Below are positions 1-7,148 of a stretch of DNA of 10,267 nucleotides, in pieces. The notes beneath the pieces were generated by a model. It did not search any database. It had not been told where the DNA came from and saw nothing but the letters and a program-made list of their open reading frames with translations. Source of the DNA: a virus (lineage: Duplodnaviria; Heunggongvirae; Uroviricota; Caudoviricetes); IMG/VR virus record IMGVR_UViG_2660238499_000007, positions 1-10,267 of that record, one strand, 5' to 3'. A program made the translations under genes and the position numbers. Within the stretch, counting starts at the first letter, position 1. Each line of letters opens with the position of its first letter.

Positions 1-204
1 TCACAAACTCACAAACCAGCAATGAGCCATCACAGGGGGGGGTAGCGACGAGTCGATGACCAGCAGCGCATCTTTCATAATGCCGAAGCGATAGATTGTC
101 TCTGACGCTTTCATGTAGTAGGTAGCATACGGTTTGTGGATGAATCTCTCATCAAGCGACAGGCGGTTCTCAACGTAATCAGCAGCCGGGCTCGGTAATC
201 CCAT
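1..204 (-). CDS. UmuD'-like (LexA/peptidase S24 family) N-terminal fragment; probably frameshifted or a pseudogene at the window edge
   Basis: 67-aa ORF MGLPSPAADYVENRLSLDERFIHKPYATYYMKAS...LLVIDSS aligns with E. coli UmuD from about residue 25 (GFPSPAADYVEQRIDLNQLL..ATYFVKAS..DLLIVDSA), i.e. it starts where UmuD is cleaved to UmuD'. GGAGG lies 6-8 nt upstream of ATG(204) and a LexA box sits just beyond. The frame terminates right after a G8 run (35-42); one alternative frame stays open to position 1. Confidence 0.55.
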   Translation of the reverse strand: MGLPSPAADYVENRLSLDERFIHKPYATYYMKASETIYRFGIMKDALLVIDSSLPPPVMAHCWFVSL

Positions 205-221
205 AACTCACCTCCGATAGT

Positions 222-241
222 TACTGTATATGAACACAGCA
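222..241. promoter_or_regulatory. LexA (SOS) box-like palindrome upstream of the umuD'-like ORF
   Basis: TACTGTATATGAACACAGCA has CTG-N10-CAG with an AT-rich centre, close to the consensus TACTGTATATATATACAGTA; it sits in the promoter position of the minus-strand ORF. Confidence 0.55.
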
Positions 242-404
242 TTGTCGATCGGTGGTGTCGATCAATAGAGATTTGAGTGATAAACTCAGATAATTACGGA
301 AACCTCTGATTGCTCAGCGTTTAGTTACACGTGCTATCTGTTATGCAAGTAGGGGTATTATCTTTTATTAATGCACACTAACTTTGTGCATATACGGAAA
401 TTAT

Positions 405-1553
405 ATGAATAAGATTGATGGTGGCAAGGTTCTTTCGGTCGAGGGTGTGAGGGGGTTGGCCTGCTTGATGGTAGTGCTTTCTCATCTATCAATAATTTTT
501 TTCCCTTACCTGCATACTGGAGACACAAAGATAATTAAGTCTTCTTTTGATGCGGTGACAAGAGATTTACCAATAGGCTTCACTTACTCTGGAACTTCAG
601 CTGTATATATATTCTTTGTATTAAGCGGATATATACTTACAAGTGTTATTTTCAGGTCTGGTTGTATATCTAAGAAGTCCGCAAAGATGCTGCTAGAAAG
701 GTATGTAAGATTATTAATACCAGTTTCGGCATCGATTATTATTTGCGCAATTGTTGTAAATTACTTCCCTTTCAATAAGTATTGGGTTCCGTGGATTTGG
801 TCATTGGGTAAAGATGGTGATTTATCTGTGATAGGAGTTTTAAAAAACTCACTATATGGCTCCATACTCAAAGGTGACTCTTCAATAAATATGGTTACAT
901 GGACTATGCAGGTTGAGTTTTATGGTTCTCTCCTTGTCTTTTTGATATCTCCTATTTCTATCTTTATTAAAAAAGCACCGCTAATATTATCTTTAATCGC
1001 AGTTTTAATCATAATTAACTTTAATGATAAAAATGCATATGGGTACGCATCATTCCTTTTTGGTATGGCTATATGTTTATGCGGATCATATAAGAATAAG
1101 GTTATTGGATATGCAATTCTTATTGCATCACTTTACTTGGCTGGATTTAAATATAATCATTATCTTTACGCATGGTTAAAAGAATTTTCATTATCTATTA
1201 ACAGCATTGAGAAAATAAATTTATACTTGCTTTTCAATCTATTATCTGGAATTGGAGTGGTATATTCCCTATGTAAGATTGGGGTTATGTCATGGTTTTC
1301 TGAATCAAAAATCATGGTCTTTTTAGGAAAGTTATCATTCTCGGCATACTTAATTCAAATGCCTGTATTTTATTGCTTATCAGGGCCAGTTTATCATGAA
1401 TCAAGGAAAATCATGAGCGACTCCAGCGCATGTTTATCAGCTGTTTTAATATCAGTGGTGATGCTTTATGCATGTTCTTACATCTTTTATTTGCTCATCG
1501 ACAGAAAAAGCATCGAGGTTTCCCATAGATTTGCCGCGATCTTTTCAAAGTAA
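405..1553 (+). CDS. Integral-membrane acyltransferase family 3 protein, O-antigen acetyltransferase (Oac/OafA)-like, probable serotype-conversion gene
   Basis: 382 aa from ATG 405 (the track uses an upstream in-frame TTG at 384). N-terminal motif VLSVEGVRGLACLMVVLSHLS matches the family-3 R-x10-H signature; the protein is very hydrophobic with many predicted TM segments; the gene is strongly AT-rich relative to its neighbours and sits next to a tailspike gene as in seroconverting P22/Sf6-type phages. Confidence 0.8.
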   Translation: MNKIDGGKVLSVEGVRGLACLMVVLSHLSIIFFPYLHTGDTKIIKSSFDAVTRDLPIGFTYSGTSAVYIFFVLSGYILTSVIFRSGCISKKSAKMLLERYVRLLIPVSASIIICAIVVNYFPFNKYWVPWIWSLGKDGDLSVIGVLKNSLYGSILKGDSSINMVTWTMQVEFYGSLLVFLISPISIFIKKAPLILSLIAVLIIINFNDKNAYGYASFLFGMAICLCGSYKNKVIGYAILIASLYLAGFKYNHYLYAWLKEFSLSINSIEKINLYLLFNLLSGIGVVYSLCKIGVMSWFSESKIMVFLGKLSFSAYLIQMPVFYCLSGPVYHESRKIMSDSSACLSAVLISVVMLYACSYIFYLLIDRKSIEVSHRFAAIFSK

Positions 1554-1560
1554 AATTAGA

Positions 1561-1582
1561 AGCCATGCGTTAGCGCATGGCT
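1561..1582. terminator. Bidirectional intrinsic terminator between convergent acyltransferase and tailspike genes
   Basis: 9-bp perfect stem AGCCATGCG/CGCATGGCT with a 4-nt loop, flanked by T-rich sequence on the tailspike strand (TCTAATTTTA) and CTTGACCTTT on the plus strand. Confidence 0.6.
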
Positions 1583-1588
1583 TGACCT

Positions 1589-3835
1589 TTAGTAAGAGAT
1601 AGGTATTTCTCCTGTAGAGAAGTTGCCTGCTGCACCTTCCCTGCTGCATAAAGCGAACTTCTTATCAACCACATCCCTTGAGTCTGTAGCAATAATTTCA
1701 TGGCAAATATTATTTGCAGATCTGTGCACGAATGTATTTACAACAGGCTTACTGGACGATGTTCCTTTGGCCCTCGTTCCGTCTATAAGGCAATCAGACA
1801 CCGACATAAGTCCTGAAACTAGGTTATTGCTTGAATCCCAATCTATCAACGACTTATCAAAATACACGCTTCCTAACATATAGGTTGTCCCTCCGGAGTA
1901 ACCAACAAACCTGCGCAGCACTCCACCTTCCAGCCTAATATAGCTGCGAGACATTCCAGACGTAAAGTTCATGAAAGTTATGTCCATATTGCTCTCAAGA
2001 CCATAAAGGCATGATGCATACTCATTCAGGTATCCAATATAAGCTAAAACCTTACAACCAATTGATTTCGCAGGTGTCAGTTTGACTATTGATATTTCTC
2101 TGGAAGTTGAATCATGGTAAGAGATGGCCCACTCAAATCTTGCATTTTTACCATTAAAGGTGCTTCCGGAGAAATCTATAACGCCAGGCATAATGAAATC
2201 ACGAATAATGCTATTTTGTGTCTTAAAATTATTTTTAAATGAAACAATGTTAAGTGTGACTGCGTCAGGCCAGTAGATATTTGTAGATATAATTACATTT
2301 TTTGGCAGATTTAATGCTCTTGGCTGAACAGGGCTACCAGTGGAAACAACATTATCACACCTGCATGTGAAGAGATCTACAAGCCCAGTTTTGTCCGATG
2401 ATATTCTTACCGAACCCCCTTTGACAATAAAATCCCCCTTATGCTCTCCATAGTCAGTGCGAATCCCAAAGGGACCAATATCTGAGTTTATAATCTGCGT
2501 TGATTCATCAAAAGCGCCAGTACCAAAAGCCGCGCCATTAATTATCCTGCAATTGTCTATCAAAACCTTAGACGATCCATAATGAAGATTGAAGCTATCA
2601 ACAGTGCAATCTCTTACCACAGTGTCACGGCTATAATTACCATCAATAGAACGCCACCCTTTCCCAACAACAGTGCTAAAAAAAGAATGCTTCAGAGTAA
2701 ACTCTAGAGTCAATGTGTAGCGAGATTCAGAATCAGGTTGTGTCATCCCCGATGAGCACAAATACCAATTAACACCGTATGTATTACTACTACCAAAAAT
2801 TGCAGAGTTGATGGGTATTACGCCTAAGGTATTATCATAATTAACCCTTACATCAACCATAGACCTTTTGATATCAACAGCCGTGCCAGTAAACGTCCCT
2901 GATAACTTAGGCAATACAGTGACAGTCCTTCGCACAGGCAGCTTATATAAAGTACAGATAAGTGAAGAGTTGTATGTATTCTTAAATGTATACGCTAAAT
3001 CACTTCCTTTGGTTAGTAGGTTAACTTCACCTTTGTATTTTGGCGTGAAAGTGCTGCCAAGCAATCGGTACAAGTCAATTTCAGTACCAGACATCTTAAC
3101 TAAGGAATTATCCCATCCAGTGGTTGACTCTGTAAATGTTAGCGCGGAAGTTAGCTCGTTTAATGGATATGCTGATGGTGTAAAATCTTTAATGTATGTA
3201 GATGCGTCTCTCTCATCAGCATAAACAATCTTACCGCCAGCCAGGTTGAACGTGCAATTGCTGAGATCAAAATCTCCGTATAACGTTGTCTCTTTGTCGA
3301 TAGTGAAAGTCAGTGGCATAGTTGAGTAGATTTTCACTGGAGTTCCTTTAAACTCAGCAAAAACAGAATTCAACTGATCGCTATTTCTTTCACCATCAGC
3401 AGCAGCTATATCGTATACAGAAAGCCTGACCTCTAACCCCCCTATTATTTTGTAACCGTCTGGCGAACTAATTTCATCCATGAACCTTTGCTCAAACTGG
3501 TCAGGGTCATACTTCAGCACATTCGGAAAATAGAACTGCTGAGAACCGTACGCATCGTATACAGCCATAGAATGGCCTTGCACAGTTACGAATTTGGCAA
3601 TCTGTCCGTTATATACAGGATACCCGCCAGCGTTAATGATGATTGGCTGTGCAACAGGAACGTGAGAACCGTCTTCGTTTTCCACATAAACCTGAATCTG
3701 GTTTTCAGGATTTACCGGGTCAGTGCCAATTTTACCGATATAAATTTTGCCATTGGCTACGGCTTTAAAAGAACGAGCCATAGTGAAGAGTTGCGAAGGC
3801 ATGCTTACCACAACATTTGCGGTGATATCTGACAT
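1589..3835 (-). CDS. P22-type tailspike protein (gp9 family) with conserved head-binding N-terminal domain and divergent receptor-binding/enzymatic body
   Basis: 748 aa from ATG at 3835 (CTGGAGCAATGAAATG, GGAG RBS); the track ORF starts 16 codons upstream. The first ~120 aa ([56 protein letters not shown]...[17 protein letters not shown]...[10 protein letters not shown]) match the P22 gp9 head-binding domain as recalled; the rest is Ser/Thr/Gly/Asn-rich as in beta-helix tailspikes but not recognisably P22, Sf6 or HK620. Confidence 0.9.
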
Positions 3836-3956
3836 TTCATTGCTCCAGACGAATGATATGATGCAACCATGATGTGATTGCATACCGAAATGGTACTATT
3901 GAGTATTTATCCAGTAGGTTACGATGCCATTCCACCCAACTGGTGAGGCATCAAGG
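3836..3956. promoter_or_regulatory. Divergent intergenic control region between tailspike and mnt; possible Mnt operator
   Basis: 121-bp spacer between divergent starts. It contains TCCACCCAACTGGTGAGG (about 3931-3948), an imperfect inverted repeat (CACC...GGTG) reminiscent of the P22 Omnt core (GGTCCACGGTGGACC). Promoter hexamers not assigned with confidence. Confidence 0.3.
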
Positions 3957-4217
3957 ATGTACAGCAAATACGACGAGGCGCAGTTTCACTTGAGACTTCC
4001 GCATGAACTTCACGCGAAAATTAAACAGCGTGCGAAGATGAATAACAGGTCGCTGAACTCAGAGATAATTGCAGCGATTGAAGAATCATTGACTAAACAA
4101 AGCTCTGCATCAGTTTACATTGACGATGCAGAGCGTATGGCAGAACAACAATCCGATATGGTAAAGAAAATTGTCTTTGATACGCTCAAAGAGCTATATA
4201 AAAAAGACAGCAGCTAA
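3957..4217 (+). CDS. mnt: Mnt-like ribbon-helix-helix repressor (Arc/Mnt family)
   Basis: 86 aa from ATG 3957 (AGGA RBS; the track ORF begins at an upstream ATG 3924). FHLRLPHELHAKIKQRAKMNNRSLNSEII..IEESL and the C-terminal ERMAEQQSDMVKKIVFDTLKELYKK closely resemble P22 Mnt (FNFRMPMEVREKLKFRAEANGRSMNSELLQIV...ERLADEQSELVKKMVFDTLKDLYKK) as recalled. Confidence 0.8.
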   Translation: MYSKYDEAQFHLRLPHELHAKIKQRAKMNNRSLNSEIIAAIEESLTKQSSASVYIDDAERMAEQQSDMVKKIVFDTLKELYKKDSS

Positions 4218-4224
4218 CTATCAG

Positions 4225-4728
4225 TTACGGAGGATTCCCGATAGGGGGTAAGGGGGTATTTGTATTTATTGTCTTTTGTATATTGTCTTTTGTGTTTGAC
4301 TGATTCGGTAAATTGCTTTTTACCGATTTGGTGAAGGTTTGTTTTACCGAATTGGTAAATGTTTTACCGAATCCGTTAACTTTCGTTTTCCACTCGGAAA
4401 TGTTTGTATTCATACCAACTTGACGCCCCACCTGAATGAGAACTCCCATTCTGATAAGCTCGTTTTTGGCGGTAGAGCATTTGGTTGGTGCCATGCCAGT
4501 GAGTTCAGCGAACTGTTCGTTTCCGATCCAATCTATTTTTTTGTTGTAACCGTATGTCTTGCGCCACACAGCCATAACAATCAGTAACTGATGTAGAGTA
4601 AGTCCAGAAAGCATGGCGGCTTCTAACAGTGTGTTTGCAGTCCGAGTGTAGCCATCTTCGAGTTCTGCCACGCGATGCTCCACGACCTCCAGTTGAGGCC
4701 TGTAATCAGCTAACTTAACGACGCCCAT
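4225..4728 (-). CDS. Lambda-O-like replication initiator, N-terminal iteron-binding domain only (truncated, C-terminal domain absent)
   Basis: 167 aa; residues 20-110 (AELEDGYTRTANTLLEA...LIVMAVWRKTYGYNKKIDWIGNEQFAELTGMAPTKCSTAKNELIRMGVLIQ...GMNTNISEW) parallel lambda O N-terminus (ADLDDGYARLSNMLLEA...LAILRKTYGWNKPMDRITDSQLSEITKLPVKRCNEAKLELVRMNIIKQ...GPNKNISEW). AGGAG RBS before ATG 4728. The ORF runs through the iteron and AT-rich region and stops at 4225, 7 bp from the mnt stop; lambda O is about 299 aa. Confidence 0.75.
   Translation of the reverse strand: MGVVKLADYRPQLEVVEHRVAELEDGYTRTANTLLEAAMLSGLTLHQLLIVMAVWRKTYGYNKKIDWIGNEQFAELTGMAPTKCSTAKNELIRMGVLIQVGRQVGMNTNISEWKTKVNGFGKTFTNSVKQTFTKSVKSNLPNQSNTKDNIQKTINTNTPLPPIGNPP
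4300..4381. repeat. ori-type iterons (four ~18-bp repeats) followed by AT-rich tract, embedded in the O-like gene
   Basis: Four copies of TTTACCGAAT-NN-GGTAAA-like repeats at about 22-bp spacing (ATTCGGTAAATTG; TTTACCGATTTGGTGAA; TTTACCGAATTGGTAAA, a perfect palindrome; TTTACCGAATCCGTTAA), mirrored in the protein as KTFTNSVKQTFTKSVK. An AT-rich AAAGACAATA-repeat stretch lies immediately 3' on the coding strand (about 4255-4300), matching lambda ori organisation. Confidence 0.7.
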
Positions 4729-4876
4729 GTTTCACTCCTGCTTTGGCTAGTCTGTAAACACCAACAAGGCGCTCTGCGAACGCCCTGTTATTTGCTGCGG
4801 CTACCACTAATCCCTCAGGTGAATCAGGGTGTCGAATCTCTTCTTTTTCCTGGTATTTCTTACGACGTTTTGTCAT
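4715..4876 (-). CDS. Small basic hypothetical protein (53 aa) between cII and the O-like gene
   Basis: ATG at 4876 preceded by AGGAG (CTACAGGAGTAATTATG); translation MTKRRKKYQEKEEIRHPDSPEGLVVAAANNRAFAERLVGVYRLAKAGVKHGRR; its stop overlaps the O-like start by about 14 nt. Below the ORF-track size cutoff; no family recognised. Confidence 0.35.
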   Translation of the reverse strand: MTKRRKKYQEKEEIRHPDSPEGLVVAAANNRAFAERLVGVYRLAKAGVKHGRR

Positions 4877-4908
4877 AATTACTCCTGTAGATTGATCCAG
4901 TAATTCCC

Positions 4909-5205
4909 TCAGAATTGCATATCAATTTGCTTAAAATCCTCGGTGGCGGCCGGGGATTTTTTCTTTGTGATTCCATCCAATGCATACTTAAAAGCCCTGC
5001 TAATCGGACTGATGTCTGATGCCATTCCGAAAGCACACAAGACCGAAGCAATAAACCTCCAGTCCGTTCTGCTTATCTTCGATTCATGACAGCCAATCAT
5101 CTTTGCCAGACCGCGCTGGGTAAGCGTTGACAGGTTGATGAGTAAATCAGTTTCAGCGCGATCAATTTCTCGCTGTGTTGGCTTGCTATAACTTGCTTGT
5201 GTCAT
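4909..5205 (-). CDS. cII: CII-family transcriptional activator (lysogeny establishment)
   Basis: 98 aa; the central HTH and C-terminus (..ISR.....L..G......KKSPAATEDFKQIDMQF) align with lambda CII (..KSQISRWKRDW....NKKRPAATERSEQIQMEF) at roughly 35-40 percent identity. It sits downstream of cro on the pR strand as in lambda. Confidence 0.8.
   Translation of the reverse strand: MTQASYSKPTQREIDRAETDLLINLSTLTQRGLAKMIGCHESKISRTDWRFIASVLCAFGMASDISPISRAFKYALDGITKKKSPAATEDFKQIDMQF
5183..5196 (+). promoter_or_regulatory. pRE-like CII-binding direct repeat (TTGC-N6-TTGC) overlapping the 5' end of cII, oriented toward cI
   Basis: TTGCTATAACTTGC on the plus strand inside the first codons of cII, the position and orientation of lambda pRE -35 (TTGC-N6-TTGC). 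Confidence 0.45.
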
Positions 5206-5289
5206 TTGTTAATTTTCCAATAGTGAATAGTTAGTTGAAAGGTATGCGTGGAAACGCATATGGCCTTAGTTGGTCAGATATCTTGGGGC

Positions 5290-5336
5290 TCGCTTTGTCA
5301 GCGACGTAGGACGAATGTCCATTGTGAAAAGAGCGG
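5290..5336 (-). promoter_or_regulatory. nutR-like site (boxA-like plus boxB hairpin) between cro and cII
   Basis: On the pR-transcribed strand: CGCTCTTTTCACA (boxA-like, about 5325-5337) followed by the hairpin TCGCTGACAAAGCGA (about 5290-5304), which resembles the P22-type boxB GCGCUGACAAAGCGC rather than lambda boxB GCCCUGAAGAAGGGC. Confidence 0.5.
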
Positions 5337-5342
5337 TGTTAC

Positions 5343-5543
5343 TTATGCAGTTGTTTTTTTGTTACTTGGGAAGGGCTTTATTTCTTCCGCATAAACGCTT
5401 CCATCAGCGTTTATAGTTAAAAAAATCTTTCGGCCTGCATGAATGGCCTTGTTAATCGCGCTTTGATATACGCCGAGATCTTTAGCCGTCTTGGTTTGCC
5501 CAAAGCGTATTGCATAATCTTTCAGGGTTATGCGTTGTTCCAT
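5343..5543 (-). CDS. cro: Cro repressor, lambda-type
   Basis: 66 aa [66 protein letters not shown], essentially lambda Cro with about two conservative substitutions versus my recall; AGGAGG RBS before the ATG. Confidence 0.95.
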
Positions 5544-5569
5544 ACAACCTCCTTAGTACAGGCAACCAC

Positions 5570-5633
5570 TATCACCGCTAGAGGTAAAATAGCCAACACG
5601 CACGGTGTTAGAAGTTTATCCCTTGCGGTGATA
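5570..5633. promoter_or_regulatory. Lambda-type right operator OR1-OR2-OR3 with divergent pR (toward cro) and pRM (toward cI)
   Basis: OR1 TATCACCGCTAGAGGTA (5570-5586, one G-to-A change versus lambda), OR2 CAACACGCACGGTGTTA (5594-5610, lambda wild type), OR3 TATCCCTTGCGGTGATA (5617-5633), placed between divergent cro and cI exactly as in lambda. Confidence 0.9.
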
Positions 5634-5640
5634 GATTTAA

Positions 5641-6357
<717 letters not shown>

Positions 6358-6388: not shown

Positions 6389-6730
6389 ATGACACAATTT
6401 CAACTTGCATTAATCGCTAGAGAAGTTGATGGAGAAGTCATCCATCTTCGCACCAAAGACGGATACATCAATGCCACCGCGATGTGCAAGTCTGCGGGGA
6501 AGCTACTTGCTGACTATACACGACTAAAAACAACACAAGATTTTTTTGATGAATTATCACGCGATATGGGGATTCCCATATCGGAGTTAATTCAATCATT
6601 TAAAGGCGGAAGAGCAGAGAATCAAGGGACTTGGGTTCATCCAGACATCGCAATTAATTTAGCTCAGTGGCTATCTCCAAAATTTGCAGTGCAAGTATCG
6701 AGATGGGTGCGTGAGTGGATGTCAGGTTAA
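6389..6730 (+). CDS. KilA-N domain protein (113 aa) in the cI-downstream accessory locus
   Basis: YINATAMCKSAGKLLADYTRLKTTQDFFDELS...GTWVHPDIAINLAQWLSPKFAVQVSRWV matches the KilA-N/APSES-type DNA-binding signature (NATxxCKxxGK ... GTWVHPxxAxxLAxWxSPxF) as I recall it. It occupies the locus lambda uses for rexAB. An in-frame TAA at 6728-6730 separates it from the next ORF. Confidence 0.55.
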   Translation: MTQFQLALIAREVDGEVIHLRTKDGYINATAMCKSAGKLLADYTRLKTTQDFFDELSRDMGIPISELIQSFKGGRAENQGTWVHPDIAINLAQWLSPKFAVQVSRWVREWMSG

Positions 6731-6769
6731 AGAGCGCCTGCCGAACTCCCTATCCACCTTAAGCGGTAT

Positions 6770-7148
6770 ATGACAAACCGAGGCAGAGTTCCTCATACGC
6801 ACTTTTCTATGCTTAATGAACTGACGTTTAACTTGGTTGCGCCACTTGAACAGGCCGGATATACGCTGCCAGAAAAAATGGTCCCTGATATTTCAGAGGG
6901 TAGGGTTTTCTCGCAATGGCTCCGTGACAACCGGGGGGTTGAGCCGAAGACATTCCCAACATATAACCATGAGTACCCAGATGGCCGGACATTCCCGGTA
7001 CGTCTATACCCAAACGAATATTGCAGATTTCAAACAATACTTCAACGAAGTGTGGCTGCCTCAGTACGCTCCTAAATATTTTGCTGAACGAGACCAAAGG
7101 GCATTGACGTTGATTGAGAAAATCATGCTACCTGACCTTGATTCCTAA
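6770..7148 (+). pseudogene. Hypothetical gene downstream of KilA-N, apparently disrupted by a frameshift near 7000-7025 (possible original C-terminal part of the KilA-N protein)
   Basis: The frame opening at 6770 (MTNRGRVPHTHFSMLNELTFNLVAPLEQAGY...YPDGRTFPVRLYPNEY) is the same frame as the KilA-N ORF, separated by one stop. It ends at 7075, but a second frame continues with protein-like sequence (..IADFKQYFNEVWLPQYAPKYFAERDQRALTLIEKIMLPDLDS) to a stop at 7146-7148 that is followed directly by an intrinsic terminator. Confidence 0.4.

Follow-up and report, generated by a model that had tools for sequence, protein, structure and literature searches.

A truncated lambdoid O initiator in an E. 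coli prophage remnant is very probably a passive by-product of a single deletion

Results

A truncated initiator gene beside a lambdoid immunity region

The window, the whole 10,267-nt stretch of DNA analyzed here, holds a decayed prophage in which the front of an O-type replication gene abuts sequence downstream of mnt. We refer to the resulting ORF as O'. The features that frame it are listed by position and strand.

384-3883: acyltransferase (AT3 family) and tailspike; tailspike 748 aa (764 aa as called by the ORF finder)
3924-4217, plus: mnt (Arc/Mnt repressor), convergent with O' and bordering the deletion on the left
4225-4728, minus: O', 167 aa; begins with codons 1-164 of a lambdoid O-type replication initiator and ends with NPP and a stop
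4236/4237: deletion junction; up to 4236, P22-like prophage sequence from downstream of mnt; from 4237, the O gene
4255-4295: AT-rich origin tract, codons 145-158; 24% GC against 43% for the window
4296-4379: four dyad-symmetric 17-bp iterons (4296-4312, 4319-4335, 4343-4359, 4363-4379), codons 117-145
4715-4876, minus: 53-aa ORF in the position of HK97 gp53 and P22 orf48; phrog_1331
4887-4963, plus: putative oop-like antisense RNA, 77 nt, with pO -10 CATAAT (4874-4879) and tO hairpin (4933-4960); overlaps the 3' end of cII
4909-5205, minus: cII, 98 aa; Phage_CII, E = 1.7e-33
5291-5303, minus: nutR boxB-like hairpin of P22 type, CGCTGACAAAGCG; its twin is nutL at 7467-7479 (plus), downstream of pL
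5343-5543, minus: cro, 66 aa; first gene of the pR operon, on which O' expression would depend
5568-5633, minus: operators OR1-OR3 and pR, -35 TTGGCT (5596-5591) and -10 GATAGT (5573-5568)
5644-6357, plus: cI repressor, intact, 237 aa; HTH_3 and Peptidase_S24

O' retains the whole DNA-binding domain of an O protein. Its ATG (4728-4726) follows an AGGAG (4739-4735) by 6 nt, and the start shares 14 nt with the 53-aa ORF on its 5' side, as in HK97. Phage_rep_O (Pfam PF04492) matches residues 19-113 over profile positions 1-95 of 95 (E = 1.4e-36), and the PHROG family 'replication initiation O-like' matches at E = 1e-67. The closest full-length relative is the 276-aa O of E. coli Z1322HEC0003, which is identical over residues 1-163 and differs at residue 164 through one SNP; at the DNA level O' is 99.7% identical to intact O genes elsewhere in E. 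coli. These results bear out the sequence-only reading of this DNA, which had described an intact start, ribosome-binding site and DNA-binding domain.

O' cannot initiate replication. Alignment to its 276-aa relatives stops at residue 164, which confirms the earlier claim that the helicase-recruiting C-terminus is gone. The C-terminal 112 residues, including the domain that recruits P or a phage helicase, are missing, and a gene for P or a DnaB-like helicase is absent from the window, lying beyond the breakpoint in relatives. The loss of these residues together with the adjacent helicase gene leaves O' unable to act as an initiator and sets it apart from lambda O, P22 gp18 and HK97 gp54.

Structure prediction agrees with this anatomy. 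The AlphaFold model of O' is confident only at residues ~26-112 (pLDDT 75-86), where it shows a helix-rich domain with a beta hairpin, and low confidence over 118-167 fits a flexible linker encoded by the origin. A PDB sequence search returned no relative of O', only chance matches (E about 0.1). Foldseek of the model against the PDB turned up winged-helix and MarR-like matches, none of them significant (E >= 0.024), so the fold assignment rests on Pfam. Among PADLOC defense-system models, no family matched O' at E <= 0.01.

The truncated gene encloses a lambda-type origin

The origin sequences inside O' follow the lambda plan. Searching for TTTACCGAATTGGTAAA at up to 3 mismatches gave 6 strand-matches where 0.03 were expected, and none of 200 shuffles reached 6. 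Alignment with lambda places the iterons in codons 117-145 in both genes and ends the AT-rich tract, which lies 3' of the iterons in the direction of the gene, at codon 158/159, with the junction at codon 164. By the lambda definition, the predicted cis origin is thus complete, with four iterons and the AT-rich tract. The sequence-only reading had the ORF running through both elements before its stop, as mapped here; its four iterons stand, while its repeat coordinates (4300-4381) were a few bases off the mapped 4296-4379 and it had not given the strand.

The surroundings are equally conventional. Lambda O, P22 gp18 and HK97 gp54 share with O' the N-terminal Phage_rep_O domain and the four iterons plus AT-rich tract in codons 117-158, and lambdoid O genes and O' alike are preceded by cII, oop and a small ORF. 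O proteins of the O' type are about 50% identical to HK97 O in the N-terminal domain and identical to it in the C-terminus, and iteron specificity is predicted to travel with the N-terminal domain. A search of Rfam gave no match for oop or another relevant RNA, and oop was found by alignment to lambda (about 80% identity over 102 nt of oop/pO; fold z = -5.5). From this homology and folding, the window carries a putative intact oop with its pO and tO.

One deletion of about 23 kb produced O'

O' is the product of a single deletion of about 23 kb. All matches to the left part of the window stop at 4236, and all matches to the right part, in phages and in complete E. coli genomes, begin at 4237. 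Base-by-base alignment resolves a clean switch between the two sources at 4236/4237 with zero microhomology, and the breakpoint falls within the palindrome CCCCCTAACGGGGG, just past the AT-rich tract. The single deletion proposed by the sequence-only reading is upheld. Positions 1-4236, with the acyltransferase, the tailspike and mnt, are 99.4-99.7% identical in DNA to intact P22-like prophages, some of which occupy the same dacD-side attachment site. In an intact relative in E. coli W the two breakpoints lie ~23 kb apart, and the interval between them holds a DnaB-like helicase, the nin region, Q, and the lysis, packaging, head and ejection genes. Of the virion genes, the remnant keeps only that for the tailspike.

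The intact reading frame of O' follows from where the deletion ended. The sequence-only reading took a truncated initiator preserved in frame to fit co-option. Only three codons (NPP) and a stop follow the breakpoint, which lies downstream of codon 164; a 3' deletion cannot scramble the frame upstream of it. The frame is intact by construction and does not serve as a sign of co-option.

The remnant descends from one event in one E. coli lineage

The junction was found only in near-clonal E. coli remnants. It was absent from 50,697 phage records and 5,426 complete E. coli genomes, and none was found in the viral contig collection. The junction 32-mer was likewise absent from GTDB species representatives, among which a looser 20-mer gave only two chance matches, in a Sphingobacterium and a Deltaproteobacteria MAG. 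A metagenome scan for the junction returned one short contig. Gut metagenomes and one NCBI assembly supplied 28 contigs with the exact 167-aa O' protein, and ten loci were recovered. All ten carry the same remnant, 99.5-99.98% identical to the window over up to 10.3 kb. Where chromosomal flank was assembled, the remnant adjoins dacD, sbcB or both, and these flanks match E. coli at up to 99.3% identity. The remnant thus appears to be one recent event inherited within one E. coli lineage.

Conservation of O' must be read in the light of how the copies were found. No copy has a substitution in O', but 10 of the 11 were picked out because their O' protein matched exactly, and the remnant as a whole is near-clonal. 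Gathering remnants independently of O', with the frameshifted int fragment as query, yielded short contigs only. We also considered whether short O-like clusters of 147-159 aa represent a recurrent N-terminal-only architecture. Among the members listed, most of those bearing a name are marked 'partial', and most members overall are shorter fragments; we rejected this candidate, and these proteins were probably cut off at contig ends.

Two copies have changed their surroundings. L009 and L010 have the identical O' junction but differ in their immunity module, which has a 217-aa repressor and an HTH_3 Cro, and on their dacD side an ISL3 transposase joins the remnant to hlyE. These arrangements point to recombinational exchange and rearrangement later than the deletion.

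The operon that would express O' is apparently being shut down

Repression of pR by CI, as stated by the sequence-only reading, is upheld by the intact cI (237 aa) and OR1-3. OR1-3 and OL1/pL are lambda/HK97-like. On the left, the pL hexamers (TTGACA/GATACT) are intact, as are OL1 and the P22-type nutL boxB (window 7340-7560). Between pL and the next ORF there is no N gene, though nutL and nutR remain. That ORF (7544-7744) aligns with its PHROG at positions 40-102 only and so is 5'-truncated; the left operon has undergone a second internal deletion. In lambda, effective passage of tR1, between cro and cII, needs N (PMC6022878). Because N is deleted, the tR1 region here would not be antiterminated.

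Mutations in the remnant lineage have struck pR repeatedly. The pR sequence is TTGACT/GATAAT in HK97, in two independent E. coli prophages that share the immunity region and in two copies of the remnant. Among the remnant copies, three independent substitutions fall in the 12 nt of the pR hexamers, at 5569, 5593 and 5594; the window has two of the three and is substituted in both hexamers. Four natural pR haplotypes result: TTGACT/GATAAT, TTGACT/GATAGT, TTGGCT/GATAGT and TTAACT/GATAGT. One further copy carries cro Q16* (window position 5498). The probability that at least 3 of about 22 mutational events over 10.3 kb fall in the 12 hexamer nt is 2.4e-6, for a category picked after seeing the data, with a large margin. 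All four changes postdate the deletion, because the junction is common to all copies.

These changes run against an expressed, useful O'. The remnant lineage appears to have been shutting down the very operon needed for O' expression; a useful decoy protein would predict the reverse. The pattern suggests that, once the killing functions were lost, selection locks the switch in the repressed state. pR is the only recognizable promoter upstream of O'. A promoter scan of both strands of 4150-5700 found no sigma-70-like site, a result that is weak because the scan misses pO too and that is consistent with a weakened pR. We expect O' in the window to be essentially silent, because pR is under intact CI, both of its hexamers are substituted and N is absent.

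Decay extends across the remnant

The remnant can no longer excise, judging from its integrase gene. A 1-nt deletion near 9904 splits the integrase (9433-10121, minus) into ORFs of 157 and 83 aa. Two copies (L007, L011) have the extra C in int, and in two others (L005, L008) int is further interrupted by an IS3-family element.

A genuine defense gene beside cI has decayed as well. The bstA-like abortive-infection gene directly 3' of cI (6389-7148, plus) is split into three ORFs, a KilA-N part of 113 aa and fragments of 101 and 103 aa, which match consecutive parts of BstA models, and is a pseudogene. Two further E. coli prophages that share the immunity region have the same 113-aa truncation. 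The decayed left operon also holds a 111-aa RecT fragment (7741-8076, plus), whose match is confined to profile positions 4-76 of 198, and a short ORF (8547-8747, plus) with a DNA polymerase III theta (HolE-like) domain.

The left part of the remnant shows the same trend. Nonsense alleles in the lineage interrupt the acyltransferase (W166*, L011) and the tailspike (W394*, L005 and L008), and 3 of 11 coding SNPs are nonsense (P = 0.013). Intact P22-like prophages, integrated at either argW/yfdC or dacD, encode an acyltransferase protein exactly identical to this one. We rejected its identification with Shigella oacB/oacC at an sbcB-integrated Sf101-like phage: oacC sits within an SfII-like prophage (PMC4206707), and tblastn gave no close phage homologue.

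Independent remnants keep the immunity region and drop all or part of the origin

Other prophages with the same immunity and O region have decayed independently, each with its own breakpoint. In E. coli EC2641 (L027), ~25 codons of O are left (break at ~26), joined to an ejection-protein gene. On a contig of SRR32032889 (L029), the break is at O codon ~128, inside the iterons, where O is fused to the scaffold C-terminus in a 215-aa ORF, with the coat gene after the scaffold part. In E. coli 1008S19 (L026), O is absent, and an IS1 stands 3' of cII where gp53 and O would be. The early-side breakpoints of the remnants are spread over about 600 bp, in or just upstream of O. Every remnant keeps the immunity region; the O domain and four iterons are not kept in all, and the three other remnants retain two iterons or none.

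Discussion

The evidence favors a passive origin for O'. It is very probably a by-product, most likely silent, of a deletion that disarmed a prophage. On this account, a P22-like lambdoid prophage lay between sbcB and dacD of E. coli, and one illegitimate deletion of ~23 kb ran from O codon 164 to just downstream of mnt. It took the C-terminal domain of the initiator, the phage helicase, nin, Q, lysis and the virion genes bar the tailspike. What remains is a winged-helix origin-binding domain, an origin-encoded linker and a complete cis origin. The deletion may have spread since a disarmed prophage brings no replicative killing, lysis or excision, and later mutations would have locked the switch in the repressed state. 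Completeness of the origin and the oop module counts against a passive remnant, as a random breakpoint need not have left them. Leaky or SOS-induced transcription of O' may occur.

Precedents for interference by origin fragments come from lambda and from plasmids. In RepA- and pi-type plasmids, a replicon can be inhibited by additional iterons, or by initiator fragments that only bind DNA, when these share its specificity; such incompatibility depends on dosage, and the remnant shows no sign of multicopy dosage or expression. The Hayes plasmids carry inserts made up of elements also found in the window (the end of cII, oop, an O truncated to its N-terminal part, ITN1-4 and the AT tract) and confer a CI-independent, replicon-specific 'inhibition phenotype' (PMC3349717). 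That phenotype requires oop transcription and ITN3-4, with the AT tract dispensable, and was seen only with pBR322-derived, rop-deleted multicopy plasmids; the authors propose that it works through a build-up of many genome copies, and initiator titration and handcuffing have already been discussed for lambda (PMC3349717). The window has oop and iterons 3-4, but at a single chromosomal locus between sbcB and dacD.

We weighed a protein decoy against this background. The co-opted role put forward by the sequence-only reading, as framed here, would have O', made at low level or after SOS, occupy the iterons of same-specificity phages without recruiting helicase and so block their replication. 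The complete DNA-binding domain and intact start and ribosome-binding site would permit this; E. coli harbors intact prophages whose O N-termini and iterons are 99% identical to those here; and derepressed, P-defective cryptic lambda prophages show a replicon-specific 'nonimmune exclusion' (PMC3349717). Those prophages resemble the window in lacking the helicase/P, yet here cI and the operators are intact and pR is weakened, in a lineage repeatedly mutated in pR and cro, with N deleted and the tR1 region not antiterminated (PMC6022878). PADLOC gave zero matches for O', other remnants lost the domain or the iterons, and the frame is intact by construction. We consider the decoy very improbable. 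A broader version, in which the remnant is a natural chromosomal case of nonimmune exclusion or inhibition, with O' and the oop-iteron module blocking theta replication of iteron-matched phages after SOS cleavage of CI or leaky transcription, is similarly hard to credit; if true, a truncated initiator would be excluding superinfecting phages in a replicon-specific way. Linked to this version is the possibility that the O'-containing operon is costly to express, as the repeated pR and cro mutations might then mean.

Interference by the DNA or RNA itself, or firing of the retained origin by an incoming phage, seems more remote still. A chromosomal oop+ pO+ iteron module might titrate or handcuff the initiator of an infecting phage as the Hayes plasmids would, and all cis elements are present: the oop-like RNA, the pO -10, tO and four iterons. 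Yet the same single-copy module sits in every ordinary lysogen, and an imm434 phage, heteroimmune with the same replicon, grows in a lambda lysogen (PMC3349717); four sites are also too few to titrate initiator from a replicating phage. Alternatively, a superinfecting phage of the same replicon could fire the chromosomal origin in trans, causing over-replication and either an abortive-infection-like death or amplification of neighboring genes. The iterons and AT tract are complete by the lambda definition, and firing of a trapped lambda origin is lethal, as in Replicative Killing (PMC3349717, PMC6022878). However, the origin needs pR transcription in cis, and O and P from a heteroimmune phage do not replicate a repressed prophage (PMC6022878); pR here is both repressed and mutated. 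We would be surprised if either mechanism operated at this locus.

A passive remnant, the fallback of the sequence-only reading, is thus the explanation we retain, supported by the junction, the pR and cro mutations, the loss of N and the other remnants; intact cI and operators, mutated pR and cro, absent N and the iterons dropped elsewhere turn the same evidence against co-option. Selection on non-excisable prophages is known to yield replication-defective survivors, the RK- mutants (PMC6022878). Like these survivors and cryptic prophages, the remnant has O/P function deleted and the immunity region kept, with int and other genes decayed. RK- survivors arose in selection experiments, whereas the remnant is a natural lineage in which selection against replicative killing may have fixed the deletion.

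The remnant is ordinary prophage decay of an already known kind. Decaying prophages routinely contain truncated replication genes, and experiments on lambda have already examined how origin fragments interfere with replication. The locus offers a clean example of a P22-like prophage disarmed by one deletion and then locked down further, and the parallel inactivation of pR and cro is its one notable side observation.
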